NCBI GenBank assembly: GCA_020059745.1
Contig: JAGVBK010000002.1
Location: 2,414-66,413 of the forward strand
Direction: 5' to 3'
DNA length: 64,000 nucleotides
Source: Candidatus Shapirobacteria bacterium
Lineage (GTDB): Bacteria; Patescibacteriota; Microgenomatia; UM-FILTER-40-11
Part shown: in pieces, positions 2,691 to 20,055 of the stretch
How the letters are laid out: every line of letters begins with the position of its first letter
How positions within the stretch are numbered: position 1 is the first letter of the stretch
Program-made: the position numbers and the translations under genes
Notes under the pieces: generated by a model
Databases searched by the model: none
The model's input: the letters and a program-made list of their open reading frames with translations, nothing else
What the model was told of the DNA's origin: nothing

Positions 2691-4187
2691 ATGAAAAAAT
2701 TCCTTGTTTCAGCCATTATTTTAACATTTTTCATTTTCTTAGCTCCAAATCTATTTGTTATAAGCACCCAAAGCCAAGCCCAAGAGCATGTTTTGGAAGT
2801 AAAAGGGGAGTTTAGTCAAGAATATTCTGAAGAAAATACTAATCAGTTTGGCATTCATATCCTTGATCCTTCTGACCTTGATAAAGCTCGTGAGCTTGTT
2901 AATTCAACCGGCGGAGACTGGGGGTGGGTCACTATAGTTATCAGGGACAATGACCTCAACTACCAAAAATGGCAGGAATTCTTTGACCAATGCCGGGAAA
3001 AGCATCTTATCCCCATTGTCAGAATTGCCACCCATAATGTTGATTCTTACTGGGTAAAGCCAGAAGAACAAGATGCAGAAAAATGGGCTGATTTTCTTTC
3101 CTCGCTTAACTGGCCAACTGAAAAAAAGCATGTCATCATCTTTAATGAACCCAACCATGCCAAAGAGTGGGGCAACAACATAAATCCTCAAGAATACGCC
3201 AGAATTCTCAATAGCTTTGCTTTCAGCCTAAAAGAGAGAAGTAAAAACTTCATGATCATGAACGCTGGTCTTGATTTGGCTGCTCCTAACTCAAAGGAGA
3301 CCATGGAAGCCTACCGCTTTATGGAGGAGATGAGAAAAGAAGTTCCTGATATCTTTGAAAAAATTGATGCCTGGTCATCCCATTCTTATCCAAATCACGG
3401 TTTTGTCGGCAAGCCCTGGGAAAGCGGCAAAACTAGTATCAGGGGTTATGAATGGGAGCTTTCAGTTCTCAAAAACAACTTTGGCGTTAAAAAAGACCTG
3501 TCTGTTTTTATCACAGAAACAGGCTGGCCAAAAAGCGAAAGTAAATATGTCTGGCAAAGAACAAAATATGGCTTAAGAAAAGTAGCTGTCAGTAAGTACT
3601 ATGATTCAAATACGGCGGCAGAGTATCTTAAAAAAGCTTTTGAAGAAGTATGGCTGAAAGACAAAAGGGTAAAAGCGATTACTCCCTTTGTCCTTAATTA
3701 CCCGAACGAACTTTTTGAAAGTTTTTCCTGGTTTGACAAAGAAGGAAAACCATATCCCCAGTACGAAATTATAAAATCAATGGTCAAAGACCGCTGGTGG
3801 CCGAGCCAGGAAACAAAATATGAAATTGAGTCTATTTATCTTCCTTCTTTCATGCCCGTAAAAACAAAATTCTCTGGAAAAATGAAAATAAAAAATGTAG
3901 GCCAATCCATTTGGGGAGACAGAGAAATTTTAAGCGTAGTTTCTCATAACACCGGAGATCTGGTGATAAGCGACCTCATGCTGGGAACAACCAAAGTAAA
4001 ACCAGGCGAAACAATTGAGGTAGAGTTTACTATTGAATCAGCCACTAAATCAGGCCGTTTTAAAATCGGCTGGGAAAAAATGCCTGAATTTGAGCTTAGA
4101 GTCATGCCTCCATCAATTCTTACAGCTGCAAAATATAACCTCTGGGAATCTTTCTTCTTAAAAATAAAATACTTTTTCTTAAAGTAA
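2691..4187 (+). CDS. secreted glycoside hydrolase, clan GH-A (GH5-like) catalytic domain plus C-terminal beta-rich domain
   Basis: Signal peptide MKKFLVSAIILTFFIFLAPN. IFNEPNH (NEP acid/base) and FITETGWP (TExG nucleophile) signatures are typical of (beta/alpha)8 retaining glycosidases. Confidence 0.5.
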   Translation: MKKFLVSAIILTFFIFLAPNLFVISTQSQAQEHVLEVKGEFSQEYSEENTNQFGIHILDPSDLDKARELVNSTGGDWGWVTIVIRDNDLNYQKWQEFFDQCREKHLIPIVRIATHNVDSYWVKPEEQDAEKWADFLSSLNWPTEKKHVIIFNEPNHAKEWGNNINPQEYARILNSFAFSLKERSKNFMIMNAGLDLAAPNSKETMEAYRFMEEMRKEVPDIFEKIDAWSSHSYPNHGFVGKPWESGKTSIRGYEWELSVLKNNFGVKKDLSVFITETGWPKSESKYVWQRTKYGLRKVAVSKYYDSNTAAEYLKKAFEEVWLKDKRVKAITPFVLNYPNELFESFSWFDKEGKPYPQYEIIKSMVKDRWWPSQETKYEIESIYLPSFMPVKTKFSGKMKIKNVGQSIWGDREILSVVSHNTGDLVISDLMLGTTKVKPGETIEVEFTIESATKSGRFKIGWEKMPEFELRVMPPSILTAAKYNLWESFFLKIKYFFLK

Positions 4188-4820
4188 TTTCATCCGGGAA
4201 GATGTGTCGACAGTAAAAACACAAGTATCTGGAAGAGTGGTTTCTCTTTCGATAACCCTCTCAAAGTTAAAGGGTTTTAATGTATAGGGGTAAGAAAAAG
4301 GAAATGTAGAAATAAGAAATAAACTTTCGTTAGGTCCTGTAATTGCAACTCTTACAAAATCTTTCCTACTCCTCTCAGGAATTTCCAAAGAAAGTTCGTC
4401 TGGTTCTCTAAAAGGGTCTTGCACAACTCTTCTAAACTGTTCAGGGACAACTATGTCATCAAGATAAAGTTTACTGTTATTCATTTTTGTTGCAGTTTTG
4501 TAAACTTCGACTAAAACACTAACTGCTTTTTCTGCGTTTTCTCCTTTCTCCCCGGTATTTAAAATCAAATAGTGTGAGTCAACCTGTCTGCAACCCAACT
4601 CTTTAATATAGCTTCCGGCCCTTAAGTATTTAAGCCCAGGGTTAAACTCTGGTAAAATCAACCTCATGTCGTTAACAAATTGCTTCATGGGCTCGGTTTC
4701 TGAAGGGGTGGGGGATTCGGAAGGACTCACTTGCTCTCCCGCACAGGCGGTCAGTACAACCGCTCCGGCAGCTCCAGCAGCAAATCTAATTAAATCTCTG
4801 CGTGAAATCTTTCTTTCCAT
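4179..4820 (-). CDS. hypothetical Tat-signal lipoprotein; start moved to the internal ATG
   Basis: The track ORF start at 4883 overlaps the tRNA-Lys gene. The internal start MERKISRRDLIRFAAGAAGAVVLTAC carries a twin-arginine motif followed by a lipobox Cys. No recognisable catalytic motifs. Confidence 0.45.
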   Translation of the reverse strand: MERKISRRDLIRFAAGAAGAVVLTACAGEQVSPSESPTPSETEPMKQFVNDMRLILPEFNPGLKYLRAGSYIKELGCRQVDSHYLILNTGEKGENAEKAVSVLVEVYKTATKMNNSKLYLDDIVVPEQFRRVVQDPFREPDELSLEIPERSRKDFVRVAITGPNESLFLISTFPFSYPYTLKPFNFERVIERETTLPDTCVFTVDTSSRMKLL

Positions 4821-4825
4821 ATATG

Positions 4826-4897
4826 TGAGGCTGGAAGGATTCGAACCTTCGGCCAATCGCTTAAGAGGCGACTGCTCTACCACTGAGCTACAGCCCC
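4826..4897 (-). tRNA. tRNA-Lys (anticodon CTT), complete cloverleaf, CCA not encoded
   Basis: The reverse complement reads GGGGCTGTAGCTCAGTGGTAGAGCAGTCGCCTCTTAAGCGATTGGCCGAAGGTTCGAATCCTTCCAGCCTCA. It has a 7-bp acceptor stem (one G-U pair), GTTCGAATC T-loop and anticodon loop CTCTTAA. Confidence 0.85.
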
Positions 4898-5148
4898 AGT
4901 TTCTTTTTAATAAACTCTCTTCCTTTAAATGATTTCAACTCTTTCTCTCTCTTAAGAGCTTCATTCCTTGTCTTTAGCTCTTCGTTATAAACAAGTTCCC
5001 AAGGACCTTGATTTTTATAAGTATAACTCCTCGTTTTGCTTGGCAATACCCGATTATGTCTTAAAAGTCTTTCTTCAATATTGTTCGTCTGGCCAATATA
5101 TATTTTTCCAGAAGTCAAACTTCTAACTACATAAACAAAATATCCCAT
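4888..5148 (-). CDS. GIY-YIG nuclease family protein (small stand-alone, UPF0213-like)
   Basis: MGYFVYVVRSLTSGKIYIGQTNNIEERLLRHN is the canonical GIY-YIG motif (YxYxL..GxxYIGxT...R..EHN). The ORF starts 14 nt downstream of a partial tRNA-Lys copy. Confidence 0.75.
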   Translation of the reverse strand: MGYFVYVVRSLTSGKIYIGQTNNIEERLLRHNRVLPSKTRSYTYKNQGPWELVYNEELKTRNEALKREKELKSFKGREFIKKKLGL

Positions 5149-5161
5149 ATCTTACCCGTTT

Positions 5162-5212
5162 AATCGCTTAAGAGTCCGCCGGCTGGCGGATCTACCACTG
5201 AGCTACAGCCCC
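5162..5212 (-). repeat. partial tRNA-Lys copy 2: acceptor 5' strand and D-arm, a 16-nt GC hairpin insertion, then an anticodon-loop segment; the T-arm and acceptor 3' strand are missing
   Basis: The reverse complement GGGGCTGTAGCTCAGTGGTAGA|TCCGCCAGCCGGCGGA|CTCTTAAGCGATT matches the full tRNA-Lys at 4826-4897 outside the inserted hairpin. It then diverges into the GIY-YIG start. Confidence 0.7.
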
Positions 5213-5220
5213 AAGATAAT

Positions 5221-5460
5221 CTATATTCTGCTTTCTAAAAATCTTCTTCCGAATCCCGTCTTAAAATACTTTTCTCTTTTCAAAGCCTTTTCTTTATTTA
5301 AACAAGCCTCATAATATACCAAACAAAAGGGAATTCTGTTTCTTGTTGATTCAACTAAACCTTTATTATGTTCTTCCACTCTTCTTTTGAGATTATCTGT
5401 GTAACCAACATAAAGATCTGAATCAACTTTACTTTTTAAAACATAAGTGTAATACGTTTG
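5221..5460 (-). CDS. second GIY-YIG nuclease family ORF with no ATG/GTG/TTG start; possible pseudogene or non-canonical initiation
   Basis: The stop-to-stop frame translates QTYYTYVLKSKVDSDLYVGYTDNLKRRVEEHNKGLVES...KREKYFKTGFGRRFLESRI with a full GIY-YIG motif. The first sense codon follows a TAA directly. The ORF is absent from the track because it has no start codon. Confidence 0.5.
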   Translation of the reverse strand, partial: QTYYTYVLKSKVDSDLYVGYTDNLKRRVEEHNKGLVESTRNRIPFCLVYYEACLNKEKALKREKYFKTGFGRRFLESRI

Positions 5461-5477
5461 TTAAAAGTATTTTAAAG

Positions 5478-5547
5478 TACTGCTCTACCTGCCCGCAACG
5501 CCAGCAAGCTGGCTTGCGTGGCGGGCGAGCCACTGAGCTACAGCCCC
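5478..5547 (-). repeat. partial tRNA-Lys copy 3: the 5' half with a roughly 42-nt GC-rich imperfect hairpin inserted at the same D-loop position as in copy 2
   Basis: The reverse complement reads GGGGCTGTAGCTCAGTGG|CTCGCCCGCCACGCAAGCCAGCTTGCTGGCGTTGCGGGCAGG|TAGAGCAGTACTTTAAAATACT. The flanks are identical to tRNA-Lys positions 1-18 and 19-27. Confidence 0.65.
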
Positions 5548-5588
5548 GGATATCAAACTCTAAACCCTAAAATCTAAACTCAAATAGG

Positions 5589-5662
5589 TGCGCCAGGGGT
5601 GATTCGAACACCCGACCCCTTGTTCCGAAGACAAGTGCTCTAATCCGCTGAGCTACTGGCGC
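5589..5662 (-). tRNA. tRNA-Arg (anticodon TCG)
   Basis: The reverse complement reads GCGCCAGTAGCTCAGCGGATTAGAGCACTTGTCTTCGGAACAAGGGGTCGGGTGTTCGAATCACCCCTGGCGCA. It has a perfect 7-bp acceptor stem and anticodon loop CTTCGGA. Confidence 0.85.
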
Positions 5663-5809
5663 TCGATTTATCACTCAAAAGGCTCATAAATTATAACATT
5701 TTTGAGACTTAATTTCCTCAGTTTTATATTAAAAATTGCCAAAAGTGTTAGAATATAGATATCGGAGTCTCTTCGGTTCATTGGGCAAAGGCGCCCAAAA
5801 GGAGGCAAA

Positions 5810-5950
5810 ATGAGAGACGAAGAGATAATCGAACAGCACTTGAGGCAGCGTGAAGCCTCTGAGGGTGATCGGTTTTTTAGGTTTTTCATCATCGGAACAA
5901 TCCTGTTCATCCTCATCCTCGCGTTGCCGTACATTGTTGCTGTCATCTAG
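5810..5950 (+). CDS. small hydrophobic peptide (46 aa), hypothetical
   Basis: SD AAGGAGG lies 6-7 nt upstream of the ATG. The translation is MRDEEIIEQHLRQREASEGDRFFRFFIIGTILFILILALPYIVAVI. A GC hairpin and T-run after the stop look like a terminator. Not in the ORF track, which has a 60-aa minimum. Confidence 0.4.
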   Translation: MRDEEIIEQHLRQREASEGDRFFRFFIIGTILFILILALPYIVAVI

Positions 5951-6046
5951 TTTTGGCTAGCCCGGCTCTGAGGGTTTTTTCCTACCTTCATCCGGGCAAT
6001 TCCTTTAACGCTTCCTATTCTTTTTTTTAATTGCTAAAATAGATTA

Positions 6047-6721
6047 ATGAAAACAAATATTGTTGCCACTATCGGCCCGTCTTCGCTTAATCTTTCTATC
6101 TTCAACAAAATGGTTGAGGCAGGTATGGATTTTATCCGCCTGAACTCCAAATACGGCACCCATACTCAATATGACAAAGCTTTAAAAGATGCCGGTAAAA
6201 ACTCAAGTCTTGAGATTATTTTTGATATTTCCACCCTCCAGGCCCTTGATTATTTTATTAAAAATGACCTTGAATACTTGGCATTGTCTTTTGCCGAATC
6301 AAGGGAACAAATTGAAGAAATTAAAAAAATTGCTCCCAAGGCAAAAATCATTTCTAAAATTGAATCCGTAAAAGGGGTTGAAAACTACGATGAAATCGTG
6401 GATTCTTCCTGGGGGGTAATGATTGCCAGGGGGGACCTGGGTAAGGCGATTCCTTTAGAGCAAATACCGTGTCTGCAAAAGAGCCTTGTTGCTAAAGCGG
6501 TAAAAAAGGGAAAGTTTGTTATTGTTGCCACAGAAATGCTTCTTTCTATGGTAGAAAACCCAATCCCTACCAGGGCAGAAGTCTCGGATGTGGCCAACGC
6601 CATTTATGATGGCGCTTCAGCGGTAATGCTTTCCGAAGAAACGGCCATCGGTAAATACCCGGTTGAATCAGTAGATTTCATGAACAAGATAATCAAACAC
6701 ACCGAAAGCTGTATTTTTTAA
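6047..6721 (+). CDS. pyruvate kinase-like (beta/alpha)8 barrel protein lacking the B (lid) domain and the C-terminal domain
   Basis: MKTNIVATIGPSS matches the pyruvate kinase N-terminus KTKIVCTIGP. MIARGDLG, ATEMLLSM, PTRAEVSDVANAIYDGASAVMLSEETAIGKYP are the conserved A-domain active-site motifs. The ORF is only 224 aa and abuts the rarA stop. Confidence 0.6.
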   Translation: MKTNIVATIGPSSLNLSIFNKMVEAGMDFIRLNSKYGTHTQYDKALKDAGKNSSLEIIFDISTLQALDYFIKNDLEYLALSFAESREQIEEIKKIAPKAKIISKIESVKGVENYDEIVDSSWGVMIARGDLGKAIPLEQIPCLQKSLVAKAVKKGKFVIVATEMLLSMVENPIPTRAEVSDVANAIYDGASAVMLSEETAIGKYPVESVDFMNKIIKHTESCIF

Positions 6722-19871: not shown

Positions 19872-20055
19872 ATGTTAATTAAAGGCAATGAAGGGGAGAT
19901 GTTCGCCCCGGAGCTGTCCCGCTGAACTTACAGTAAGCGGGACCGGGATTCGCTTCGTCAAAGCGAAAAGGTGTGTCGCCTGAAAAGGACGGAGCACTTT
20001 CTTAAAGTTAAATAAACAGCAGAAAGTAGTCCCGCCGTTGGCGGGATTTTTTTTT
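19872..20055 (+). promoter_or_regulatory. attenuator-like leader between rplT and pheS: a 17-aa leader ORF, four mutually complementary segments and an intrinsic terminator
   Basis: ATG follows the rplT stop directly (MLIKGNEGEMFAPELSR, 19872-19925). The four segments are GTCCCGCT (19915-22), AGCGGGAC (19936-43), GTCCCGCC (20029-36) and GGCGGGA (20040-46), followed by T9. Segments 1:2, 2:3 and 3:4 can pair alternately. Confidence 0.4.

Follow-up and report, generated by a model that had tools for sequence, protein, structure and literature searches.

Nested GIY-YIG nuclease cassettes with cognate GC hairpins at a bacterial tRNA-Lys gene as probable mobile elements

In fungal mitochondria, mobile open reading frames (mORFs) produce gene hybrids, as in atp6 of Allomyces macrogynus and in atp6, atp9, cox2 and nad3 of Glomus; the mORF arrives with a replacement copy of part of its host gene, sometimes of foreign origin, while the native part is displaced and persists beside the open reading frame (ORF) as a non-functional duplicate (PMC3630166). 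Among T4-like phages, SegB is a free-standing GIY-YIG endonuclease encoded in a tRNA gene cluster, and Seg-type genes spread by cleaving the allele that lacks the gene, into which they are copied with flanking markers (PMC2330249). Repetitive hairpin elements have also been described (PMC2800124). Here we analyse a 64,000-nucleotide stretch of Candidatus Shapirobacteria bacterium (contig JAGVBK010000002.1), hereafter the window, in which the interval between a tRNA-Arg and a tRNA-Lys gene contains two small GIY-YIG nuclease genes, g1 and g2, each preceded by a hairpin-bearing fragment of tRNA-Lys. In our favoured explanation, which we consider probable, the locus consists of two nested copies of a tRNA-targeting mobile cassette that comprises a minimal GIY-YIG gene and its cognate GC hairpin and is spread by homing.

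On the minus strand, the interval reads tRNA-Arg, remnant 3, g2, remnant 2, g1 and intact tRNA-Lys(CTT). The tRNA-Arg(TCG) gene leading the invaded tRNA operon (5662-5587; ARAGORN, 68 bits with the Rfam tRNA model) is separated by 39 nucleotides (nt) from remnant 3 (copy 3, 5547-5479), the left stub of the older unit, which is made up of tRNA-Lys nt 1-18 (5547-5530), a GC-rich, imperfect hairpin of 42 nt (CTCGCCCGCCACGCAAGCCAGCTTGCTGGCGTTGCGGGCAGG, 5529-5488) and nt 19-27 (TAGAGCAGT, 5487-5479), so that the hairpin is a pure D-loop insertion after tRNA nt 18. An AT-rich spacer of 21 nt leads to g2 (5457-5221), a 78-codon GIY-YIG gene (Pfam PF01541, E=8.5e-16) with ACG at its start; its otherwise intact frame is open from 5460, straight after a TAA, and stops at 5223-5221. 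Remnant 2 (copy 2, 5212-5162), the left stub of the younger unit, follows after 8 nt and joins tRNA-Lys nt 1-22 (5212-5191) to a 16-nt hairpin (TCCGCCAGCCGGCGGA, 5190-5175) and nt 31-43 (CTCTTAAGCGATT, 5174-5162). This hairpin of the g1 unit (TCCGCCAGCYGGCGGA) substitutes for the 8 nt after tRNA nt 22, namely GCAGTCGC (nt 23-30), which comprise the end of the D stem, nt 26 and the 5' strand of the anticodon stem. Another 13 nt on, g1 (5148-4888) encodes an 86-amino-acid (aa) GIY-YIG nuclease (PF01541, E=5.7e-16) and overlaps the full-length tRNA-Lys(CTT) gene (4897-4825; ARAGORN, 76 bits in Rfam, cloverleaf as minimum-free-energy fold), nt 8-10 of which supply its TAG stop. Such gene/tRNA overlaps are common in relatives, at distances of 0 to -7.

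The three tRNA-Lys 5' segments are mutually identical, and exactly three copies of the 18-mer that they share, GGGGCTGTAGCTCAGTGG, exist in the 64 kb, where 0 would be expected. The window has a G+C content of 39%, and the hairpins, judged by eye, of ~75-80%. A sequence-only reading of the window had described this series of stub, GIY-YIG gene, stub, GIY-YIG gene and tRNA-Lys, and all its main elements lie at the minus-strand coordinates it gave. Its copies share the threefold 18-mer, their stub pieces equal defined nucleotide ranges of tRNA-Lys, and its two ORFs are GIY-YIG genes (PF01541, E ~1e-15), as are those of relatives. Contrary to that reading, the two hairpins do not share one D-loop position, since copy 3 is interrupted after nt 18 while in copy 2 the hairpin takes the place of the 8 nt behind nt 22. 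A split or permuted tRNA, which it had also proposed, is rejected: ARAGORN and Rfam at permissive thresholds gave only 5' fragments besides the complete tRNA-Lys, with no 3' halves or extra tRNA-like matches. The group I intron that it had suggested looking for fares no better, as Rfam returned no intron family match at E up to 10 over 4300-6100 and the intact tRNA is uninterrupted.

Both nucleases score far above the PF01541 cutoff of 22.6 bits (g1 59 bits, g2 58.5 bits), and the catalytic Y, G, R, H and E columns are invariant in the homologue alignments (A2 and A3). At 37% identity, they fall into separate subfamilies. Homologues of g1, mostly from Patescibacteria, have 80-90 aa, 50-65% identity and intact catalytic motifs, and those of g2, more than 1296 in number, typically have 78 aa and start with MYYTY. 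The closest homologue of g2, P0112 of locus L087 (loci in other genomes are cited by L numbers), is 83% identical to it and starts with ATG. The sequence-only reading had noted that g2 has no start codon; it is true that there is no ATG and that the frame opens after a TAA, but comparison with homologues beginning MYYTY explains this as an ATG-to-ACG change at 5457-5455. The nearest relatives of solved structure, at a weak E of ~1e-3, are the UPF0213 proteins 1zg2 and 1ywl and SLX1. Neither protein has the traits of a canonical GIY-YIG homing endonuclease: at 86 and 78 aa, they are catalytic cores without a DNA-binding domain, and their scores for the group I intron endonuclease family TIGR01453 (28.1 bits for g1, 21.5 bits for g2) are under the cutoff of 56. 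A phage origin of the cassettes was considered and rejected, as phage records and viral contigs held no close homologue of g1 or g2 and only weak or partial GIY-YIG matches. We found no integrase or other recombinase near the cassettes, the two GIY-YIG genes being the only ORFs between the tRNAs, and no HUH (Y1) transposase, Pfam giving only GIY-YIG-type domains in adjacent ORFs.

Comparison with 160 related loci, namely the 80 best-matching g1 loci and the 80 best-matching g2 loci (the latter from metagenomes), shows that both window units have counterparts elsewhere. A unit measures ~330 bp, and units of this kind stand at well over 100 loci in other bacteria. The canonical g1 unit comprises tRNA nt 1-22, the 16-nt hairpin, nt 31-43, the GIY-YIG gene and an intact tRNA. 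A same-strand tRNA starts -7 to +35 nt from the gene end in 57/80 g1 loci; almost all of these tRNAs are Lys-CTT or Lys-TTT, the exceptions being a few Asn and one His. The gene is preceded by a partial copy of this tRNA, which runs from nt 1 to ~22, through a hairpin of consensus TCCGCCAGCTGGCGGA and the cognate anticodon loop, to nt 42-63, and this hairpin-bearing 5' stub architecture is found in 53 of the 56 tRNA-downstream g1 loci. Eleven further g1 loci have the mirror form of intact tRNA, gene and stub (~nt 8-22, hairpin, nt 32-76), with the hairpin present in eight. On either side of the hairpin the stub agrees with the local tRNA, cognate anticodon included. Hairpin-bearing 3' stubs also follow the tRNA in at least 15 tRNA-downstream loci, some with stub arrays, and ~10 g1 loci carry the hairpin at an alternative D-loop position (TAGCTCA, hairpin, GGTAGAGCAG, break), which is that of remnant 3. 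The first hint of this conserved context came from odd protein termini, the endings VDPPAGGLL, VAQR and VAQW of database ORFs being translated hairpins and tRNA 5' ends.

The extent of the g1 unit is suggested by L015 and L018, whose 87% identity is limited to the stretch from stub through tRNA, although this tract is not decisive because the tRNA and ORF are conserved anyway. The 16-nt hairpin (TCCGCCAGCTGGCGGA or TCCGGCGGCTGCCGGA) also stands beside g1-like genes in contigs labelled Bacteroidota (L175) and Chlorobi (L176); L175 has two identical tandem units, each closed by a terminator-like hairpin. Two variations on the stubs were observed in addition. In L038, L009, L027, L050, L052 and L053, hairpin-bearing tRNA-Lys fragments without a nuclease gene between them form tandem arrays of 70-85 nt units, with up to five or more copies. 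L008, L027 and L052 (forward) and L053 (reverse) have, beyond the intact tRNA, 3' stubs whose T loop contains another type of hairpin with the conserved tail TCCGCCnnnnGGCGGA plus CAGGCT(A).

The canonical g2 unit consists of tRNA nt 1-18, a 42-nt GC hairpin in the D loop, nt 19-27 and a 78-aa GIY-YIG gene. L087, the closest g2 relative, shares this 42-nt hairpin and its position (GGGGCGTTAGCTCAGTGG, CCCGCCCGCCACGCAAGCCAGCTTGCTGGCGTTGCGGGCAGG, TAGAGCAG), followed by an ATG-initiated gene and, 7 nt after it, tRNA-Lys(TTT), which identifies remnant 3 and g2 as a canonical unit with a mutated start codon. About half of the 80 g2 loci directly precede tRNAs of at least 13 identities, with both the GC hairpin and a 5' repeat of the tRNA. 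In L111, L151 and L170, it is the ORF that lies between the GC arms. In L151 (~nt 1380-1860), the GIY-YIG ORF lies between the arms CCCGCCCGCCTCGCC and GGCTCGCGTGGCGGGCG inside a protein-coding gene (MKKILIFSTAYLP...), the first ~50 nt of which are duplicated in copies that differ at three positions and have different 5' untranslated regions. Three different tRNA-Val are nested at nt 1380-1960 of L088-L091 (Doudnabacteria MFFA01000003 and relatives): a 5' stub with a long hairpin precedes the GIY-YIG gene, the outer tRNA-Val after the gene has a split D loop, and the hairpin arms in this D loop enclose a complete third tRNA-Val. A further set of g2-like ORFs (L160-L162, L166, L167, L169, L172-L174) is enclosed by short inverted repeats (CCCTGTTAAATA ... 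TATTTAACAGGG) at 3-15 nt from the ORF and interrupts genes for four-helix-bundle proteins of the 23S rRNA intervening-sequence type between ...SN and (IAE)AWRKR..., with no tRNA and no target duplication visible.

The 16-nt hairpin occurs in 72/80 g1 loci versus 1/80 g2 loci, and the long-arm GC hairpin in 6/80 versus 41/80. Hairpin type is thus tightly tied to nuclease subfamily, and the window holds both cognate pairs side by side. Variants of the stem arms are all compensated (TCCGGC/GCCGGA, TCAGGC/GCCTGA, TTCGCC/GGCGAA, TCCGTC/GACGGA, CCCGCC/GGCGGG and CCCGTC/GACGGG) and partly follow the nuclease tree, GTC/GAC being common to L047, L067 and L072. Since hairpins were chosen by perfect pairing, their 100% pairing is by construction; the finder did allow G:T, and no G:U (G:T) pair occurs in 174 stem cells. 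The centre varies between 2 and 4 nt, and this variable spacing speaks for a hairpin and not for a rigid duplex binding site; stems free of wobble pairs are somewhat more in keeping with DNA than with RNA. Within the window, the 16-nt type is confined to this locus (once in 64 kb), and a genome-wide repeat was rejected on this count. The hairpins were also rejected as terminators, as no T tract follows them and the terminator scan calls none on the minus strand. The one other noteworthy GC hairpin of the window, at 20030-20046, is an ordinary intrinsic-terminator-like hairpin (TCCCGCCGTTGGCGGGA and a T run) with similar arms, unrelated to the tRNA-linked ones. The hairpin could be a recognition structure for the nuclease, given that the structure-specific SLX1 is among the nearest solved relatives; it could be a heterology that splits the repeat into 22-nt and 13-nt pieces and shields the cassette from recombinational loss; or it could be an RNA element, or the handle of a guide-like RNA.

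These properties of the hairpin bear on an alternative in which a nuclease of the SLX1/UPF0213 type cuts the GC hairpin, single-stranded or as a cruciform, and cargo such as the nuclease gene or a tRNA enters or leaves at palindromes, the tRNA duplications being by-products of repair. Subfamily-specific hairpins count in favour of such transposition, and stems that are Watson-Crick throughout, free of G:U and joined by a centre of variable length (2-4 nt), suit a DNA hairpin better than a fixed-spacing duplex and arguably better than RNA. It would also account for arms that flank a whole ORF (L111, L151, L170) or a complete tRNA (L088) and for the full hairpins at both cargo sides in L007 and L008, and it would make sense of SLX1 among the nearest solved relatives. 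Most units, both of those in the window included, bear instead a single closed hairpin on one side; we know of no GIY-YIG transposase; and tRNA sequence on both sides of the hairpin, together with a rebuilt tRNA, would still call for homology-dependent repair. We consider this alternative unlikely, although T-loop hairpins, stub arrays and arms enclosing an ORF or a tRNA suggest that the hairpin behaves independently and has a life of its own, which keeps hairpin-directed transposition alive.

Several loci bear signs of mobility and of replacement by foreign copies. Identical tandem units are found in L016 and L064, and nested units of differing subfamilies in L017, L019, L037 and L098 as well as in the window. 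The synteny of tRNA-Arg(TCG) and tRNA-Lys(CTT) recurs among relatives, and in L098, from another genome, the same interval likewise holds two GIY-YIG genes. Upstream and downstream forms are interleaved in the nuclease tree, as are Lys-CTT and Lys-TTT. The acceptor strands of the two L007 stubs (GGGGCTG and CAGCCTC) are complementary to each other and unlike those of the intact tRNA between them (GGGGCGT and ACGCCTC), which implies that a resident tRNA was split and a different tRNA came in. To the left of the hairpin, the stub departs from the intact tRNA at 4 positions in L054 and at 2 in L074; to the right, the two are identical. The upstream unit of the window is the one that has lost its ATG (ACG in g2 versus ATG in its relatives).

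The identity of the three tRNA 5' segments in the window could also be explained without a mobile element, as local tandem duplication and decay of a GIY-YIG/tRNA-Lys pair, since unequal crossing-over can make tandem units, or as an assembly artefact, which the sequence-only reading had named as a way to fail. A recent tandem duplication is rejected on the 37% identity of g1 and g2 and on their distinct subfamilies and cognate hairpins, and each unit has close counterparts at other tRNAs in other genomes. Five independently assembled contigs (three Logan runs and two Joint Genome Institute (JGI) metagenomes) share the arrangement at 99.5-100% identity without indels, all with both cassettes and with ACG at the g2 start, which argues against an artefact. 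Duplication or misassembly is therefore largely refuted and retains next to no probability. We consider it likely that the window cassettes are serially inserted mobile cassettes. Serial insertion, as the sequence-only reading had offered it, is supported in outline by the two widespread cassette families and the recurrent tandem and nested arrays; cleavage of the tRNA gene by the proteins, catalytic cores without a DNA-binding domain, is hypothetical.

We propose that insertion of a cassette would leave the 5' portion of the resident tRNA behind, upstream, as a stub without function that contains the hairpin, while a complete tRNA is rebuilt or supplied right after the nuclease gene, with all parts co-oriented within the tRNA operon. 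In the window, a g2-type cassette with its long D-loop hairpin would have come first. A g1-type cassette, whose 16-nt hairpin replaces the 5' strand of the anticodon stem, would later have entered the tRNA-Lys behind g2, turning the 5' part of that tRNA into remnant 2 and displacing the older unit upstream, where g2 lost its ATG. The nuclease may break an unoccupied or occupied tRNA gene at or near the hairpin-marked position, which would be the D loop for the g2 type and the end of the D stem with the 5' strand of the anticodon stem for the g1 type. Repair could then copy the occupied allele, with stub and intact tRNA serving as homology arms: the left broken end would pair with the stub, the right end with the intact tRNA or a 3' stub, and copying between them would transfer the hairpin, the nuclease gene and part or all of a tRNA. 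Re-cutting of the rebuilt tRNA would yield tandem or nested units and push older ones outward to decay, which matches the upstream position of g2 and its missing ATG. This scheme would reproduce all observed architectures, those of L007 and L008 included, and it follows the logic known from fungal mitochondrial mORFs (PMC3630166) and from the free-standing Seg endonucleases of the T4 tRNA region (PMC2330249); we give break-and-copy homing a slightly better than even chance of being how the cassettes spread.

A number of points weigh against homing. The supporting nuclease tree is built from ~85 residues and poorly resolved. Over all loci, mismatch frequencies left and right of the hairpin do not differ significantly (40/726 versus 24/396), so a general asymmetry between resident and donor sequence across it was rejected, though individual loci show one. 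In the window, as in most loci, the stubs are identical to the intact tRNA, and a foreign origin is not visible there. The sequence-only reading had suggested looking for uninterrupted sites in close relatives, and neither the five contigs, nor an exact-pattern scan, nor look-ups of neighbouring genes gave an empty or single-cassette allele. An exact 30-mer of the tRNA 3' end and downstream flank had no match in metagenome contigs, the ORF downstream of tRNA-Lys has no database record as called, and look-ups of a pyruvate-kinase-like neighbour led to nothing but this structure again or to contigs that break within the repeat. The occupied allele, moreover, retains an intact and apparently cleavable tRNA gene without an immunity mechanism that we could name. 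A simple homing model also predicts none of the hairpins in T loops, at other stub positions, in nuclease-free arrays or around an ORF or whole tRNA. Finally, the nuclease is a bare catalytic core of 78-86 aa, which offers no evident basis of site specificity.

With respect to specificity, the hairpin-bearing stub might itself be the specificity module of the minimal nuclease, the hairpin acting as a handle bound by the GIY-YIG core and the tRNA flanks directing the enzyme by RNA pairing or through branched or cruciform DNA; we attach little probability to this. Were it true, it would amount to nucleic-acid- or structure-guided GIY-YIG homing that swaps an essential tRNA gene for its own copy, a natural 'cleave and rescue' drive. 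A stricter form, in which the stub RNA is a guide whose tRNA flanks pair with the tRNA gene and whose hairpin is the protein handle, would explain why the handle is conserved and subfamily-specific while the flanks vary and always match the local target on both sides, why the stub adjoins the ORF in co-orientation, 5' or 3', and how specificity arises without a DNA-binding domain; homing by TnpB and omega-RNA is a functional parallel (PMC10690162). The missing G:U pairs, arrays that reiterate one fragment and not diverse spacers, and a guide that would match the adjacent intact tRNA too all speak against RNA guidance, for which a GIY-YIG enzyme would be without precedent, and we regard it as very improbable.

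Expression of the nucleases and of tRNA-Lys is probably coupled, given that the cassettes lie in a tRNA operon with a -10 box before tRNA-Arg and no terminator. The candidate extended -10 element, TGTTATAAT (5690..5698, minus strand, 5' of tRNA-Arg), was read from the sequence and missed by the two-hexamer promoter scan; from its region to tRNA-Lys, the scan called no minus-strand terminators. This setting accords with a domesticated operon, in which the GIY-YIG protein serves the host and its gene is transcribed together with tRNA-Lys, the stub and hairpin act as an RNA leader or trailer in mRNA stability, processing or regulation, and gene conversion maintains the likeness to the tRNA. Consistent with this are the strict co-orientation inside a tRNA operon without terminators, the hairpin 15-40 nt ahead of the start codon or just past the stop, ORFs at 50-65% identity with intact catalytic motifs, and the g1 stop inside the tRNA, which would set translation in competition with RNase P cleavage. 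Insertion events are indicated, however, by the tandem and nested units, the decayed copies and stub arrays, the variety of tRNA targets, the protein-gene target and the stubs from foreign tRNAs, and the units are patchily distributed; with its 13 nt, the segment to the right of the hairpin falls short of what RecA-dependent conversion needs to be efficient, judged by the minimal efficient processing segment, and the 174 stem cells contain no G:U pairs. Domestication is in our view quite improbable, although the stubs could secondarily act as the tRNA-like leader of the nuclease mRNA, aiding expression or processing, that the sequence-only reading had raised, because the cassettes are co-oriented with the tRNA in an operon without intervening terminator.

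Further observations concern transcripts and the tRNA-Lys flank. RNase P processing of tRNA-Lys would strip the stop codon from the g1 message, because the TAG sits inside the tRNA. Ahead of g2, TTGCGG from the 3' arm of the remnant 3 hairpin, 18 nt and TAAAAT follow one another (5488-5466); a sigma-70 promoter created by the hairpin was rejected here, as this arrangement scores under the scan threshold. Units with D-loop hairpins (L071, L082, L063, L085, L060) often have a TATAAT-like box 5-12 nt before the start codon, which suggests near-leaderless transcripts from an element-borne promoter. Downstream, a minus-strand ORF (4179-4820) with a weak twin-arginine signal match begins 5 nt past the tRNA-Lys 3' end, with no 3' tRNA stub in between. 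L005 (JGI 3300037067) equals the window from tRNA-Arg through both cassettes to the final base of tRNA-Lys, and from its nt 788 (window 4824) unrelated sequence replaces the ORF at 4820; the assembly is chimeric, or else this strain is rearranged precisely at the 3' end of the tRNA.

Full-text literature searches, of incomplete coverage, returned no description of tRNA-linked minimal GIY-YIG cassettes with tRNA stubs and cognate hairpins in bacteria, and the window locus is apparently a local example of a widespread, undescribed element family. If the proposed explanation is true, a compact (~330 bp) and widespread class of selfish element in small-genome bacteria colonises essential tRNA genes without loss of function and stacks at one site. 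This would account for many annotations of 'GIY-YIG nuclease family protein' beside tRNAs and for ORF calls that enter tRNA or hairpin (VAQR/VAQW, VDPPAGGLL), and a core without a DNA-binding domain would appear to reach site-specific spread. The pairing of subfamily and hairpin points to a recognition principle that is directly testable and may be reprogrammable, and there is a real chance that this principle is new.

Among described systems, elements with tyrosine integrases also use tRNA genes, restoring an intact tRNA and leaving a partial tRNA repeat at one end; they are kilobases long, encode the integrase and usually duplicate the 3' part of the tRNA, whereas the cassette has ~330 bp and no integrase, and in the window it is the 5' part that is duplicated. 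Short GC-rich hairpins are tied to element-encoded nucleases, the HUH transposases, in IS200/IS605 and REP/RAYT, and mitochondrial GC-rich palindromic or double-hairpin elements have no assigned enzyme. The cassettes share with hairpin elements short GC-rich hairpins in AT-rich genomes, but unlike IS200/IS605 and REP/RAYT they have no HUH protein, and their hairpins are embedded in tRNA gene fragments. As single-domain GIY-YIG cores, g1 and g2 resemble UPF0213/SLX1-URI type proteins (PDB 1zg2, 1ywl, 6seh), for which we know of no tRNA-linked, hairpin-linked or mobile context. With SegB, the cassettes share a GIY-YIG gene placed between tRNA genes and outside any intron; SegB-type enzymes have a C-terminal DNA-binding region and, unlike the cassettes, leave no partial target duplications or hairpins.

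In function, the mitochondrial mobile ORF with a replacement gene fragment comes closest. As with mORFs, each window ORF is flanked by a functional and a displaced partial copy of its target, namely remnant 2, g1 and tRNA-Lys in one unit and remnant 3, g2 and the (former) tRNA-Lys in the other. Some mORFs bring a functional copy of foreign origin; at cassette loci such an origin is seen in L007, L054, L074, L088 and L151, but not in the window, where the copies are identical, nor as a significant left/right difference in mismatches over all loci. The cassettes differ in that they reside in bacterial chromosomes (candidate phyla radiation and FCB-type contigs) and mainly target tRNAs, that they displace either the 5' or the 3' part of the target, and that the displaced fragment contains a subfamily-specific GC hairpin; their nuclease is a GIY-YIG core of 78-86 aa, in contrast to the full LAGLIDADG or GIY-YIG enzyme of mORFs. 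If true, our explanation would extend the mechanism of a mobile ORF with a replacement fragment, which in the literature searched we otherwise found described only for fungal mitochondria, to bacterial chromosomes and to tRNA genes.

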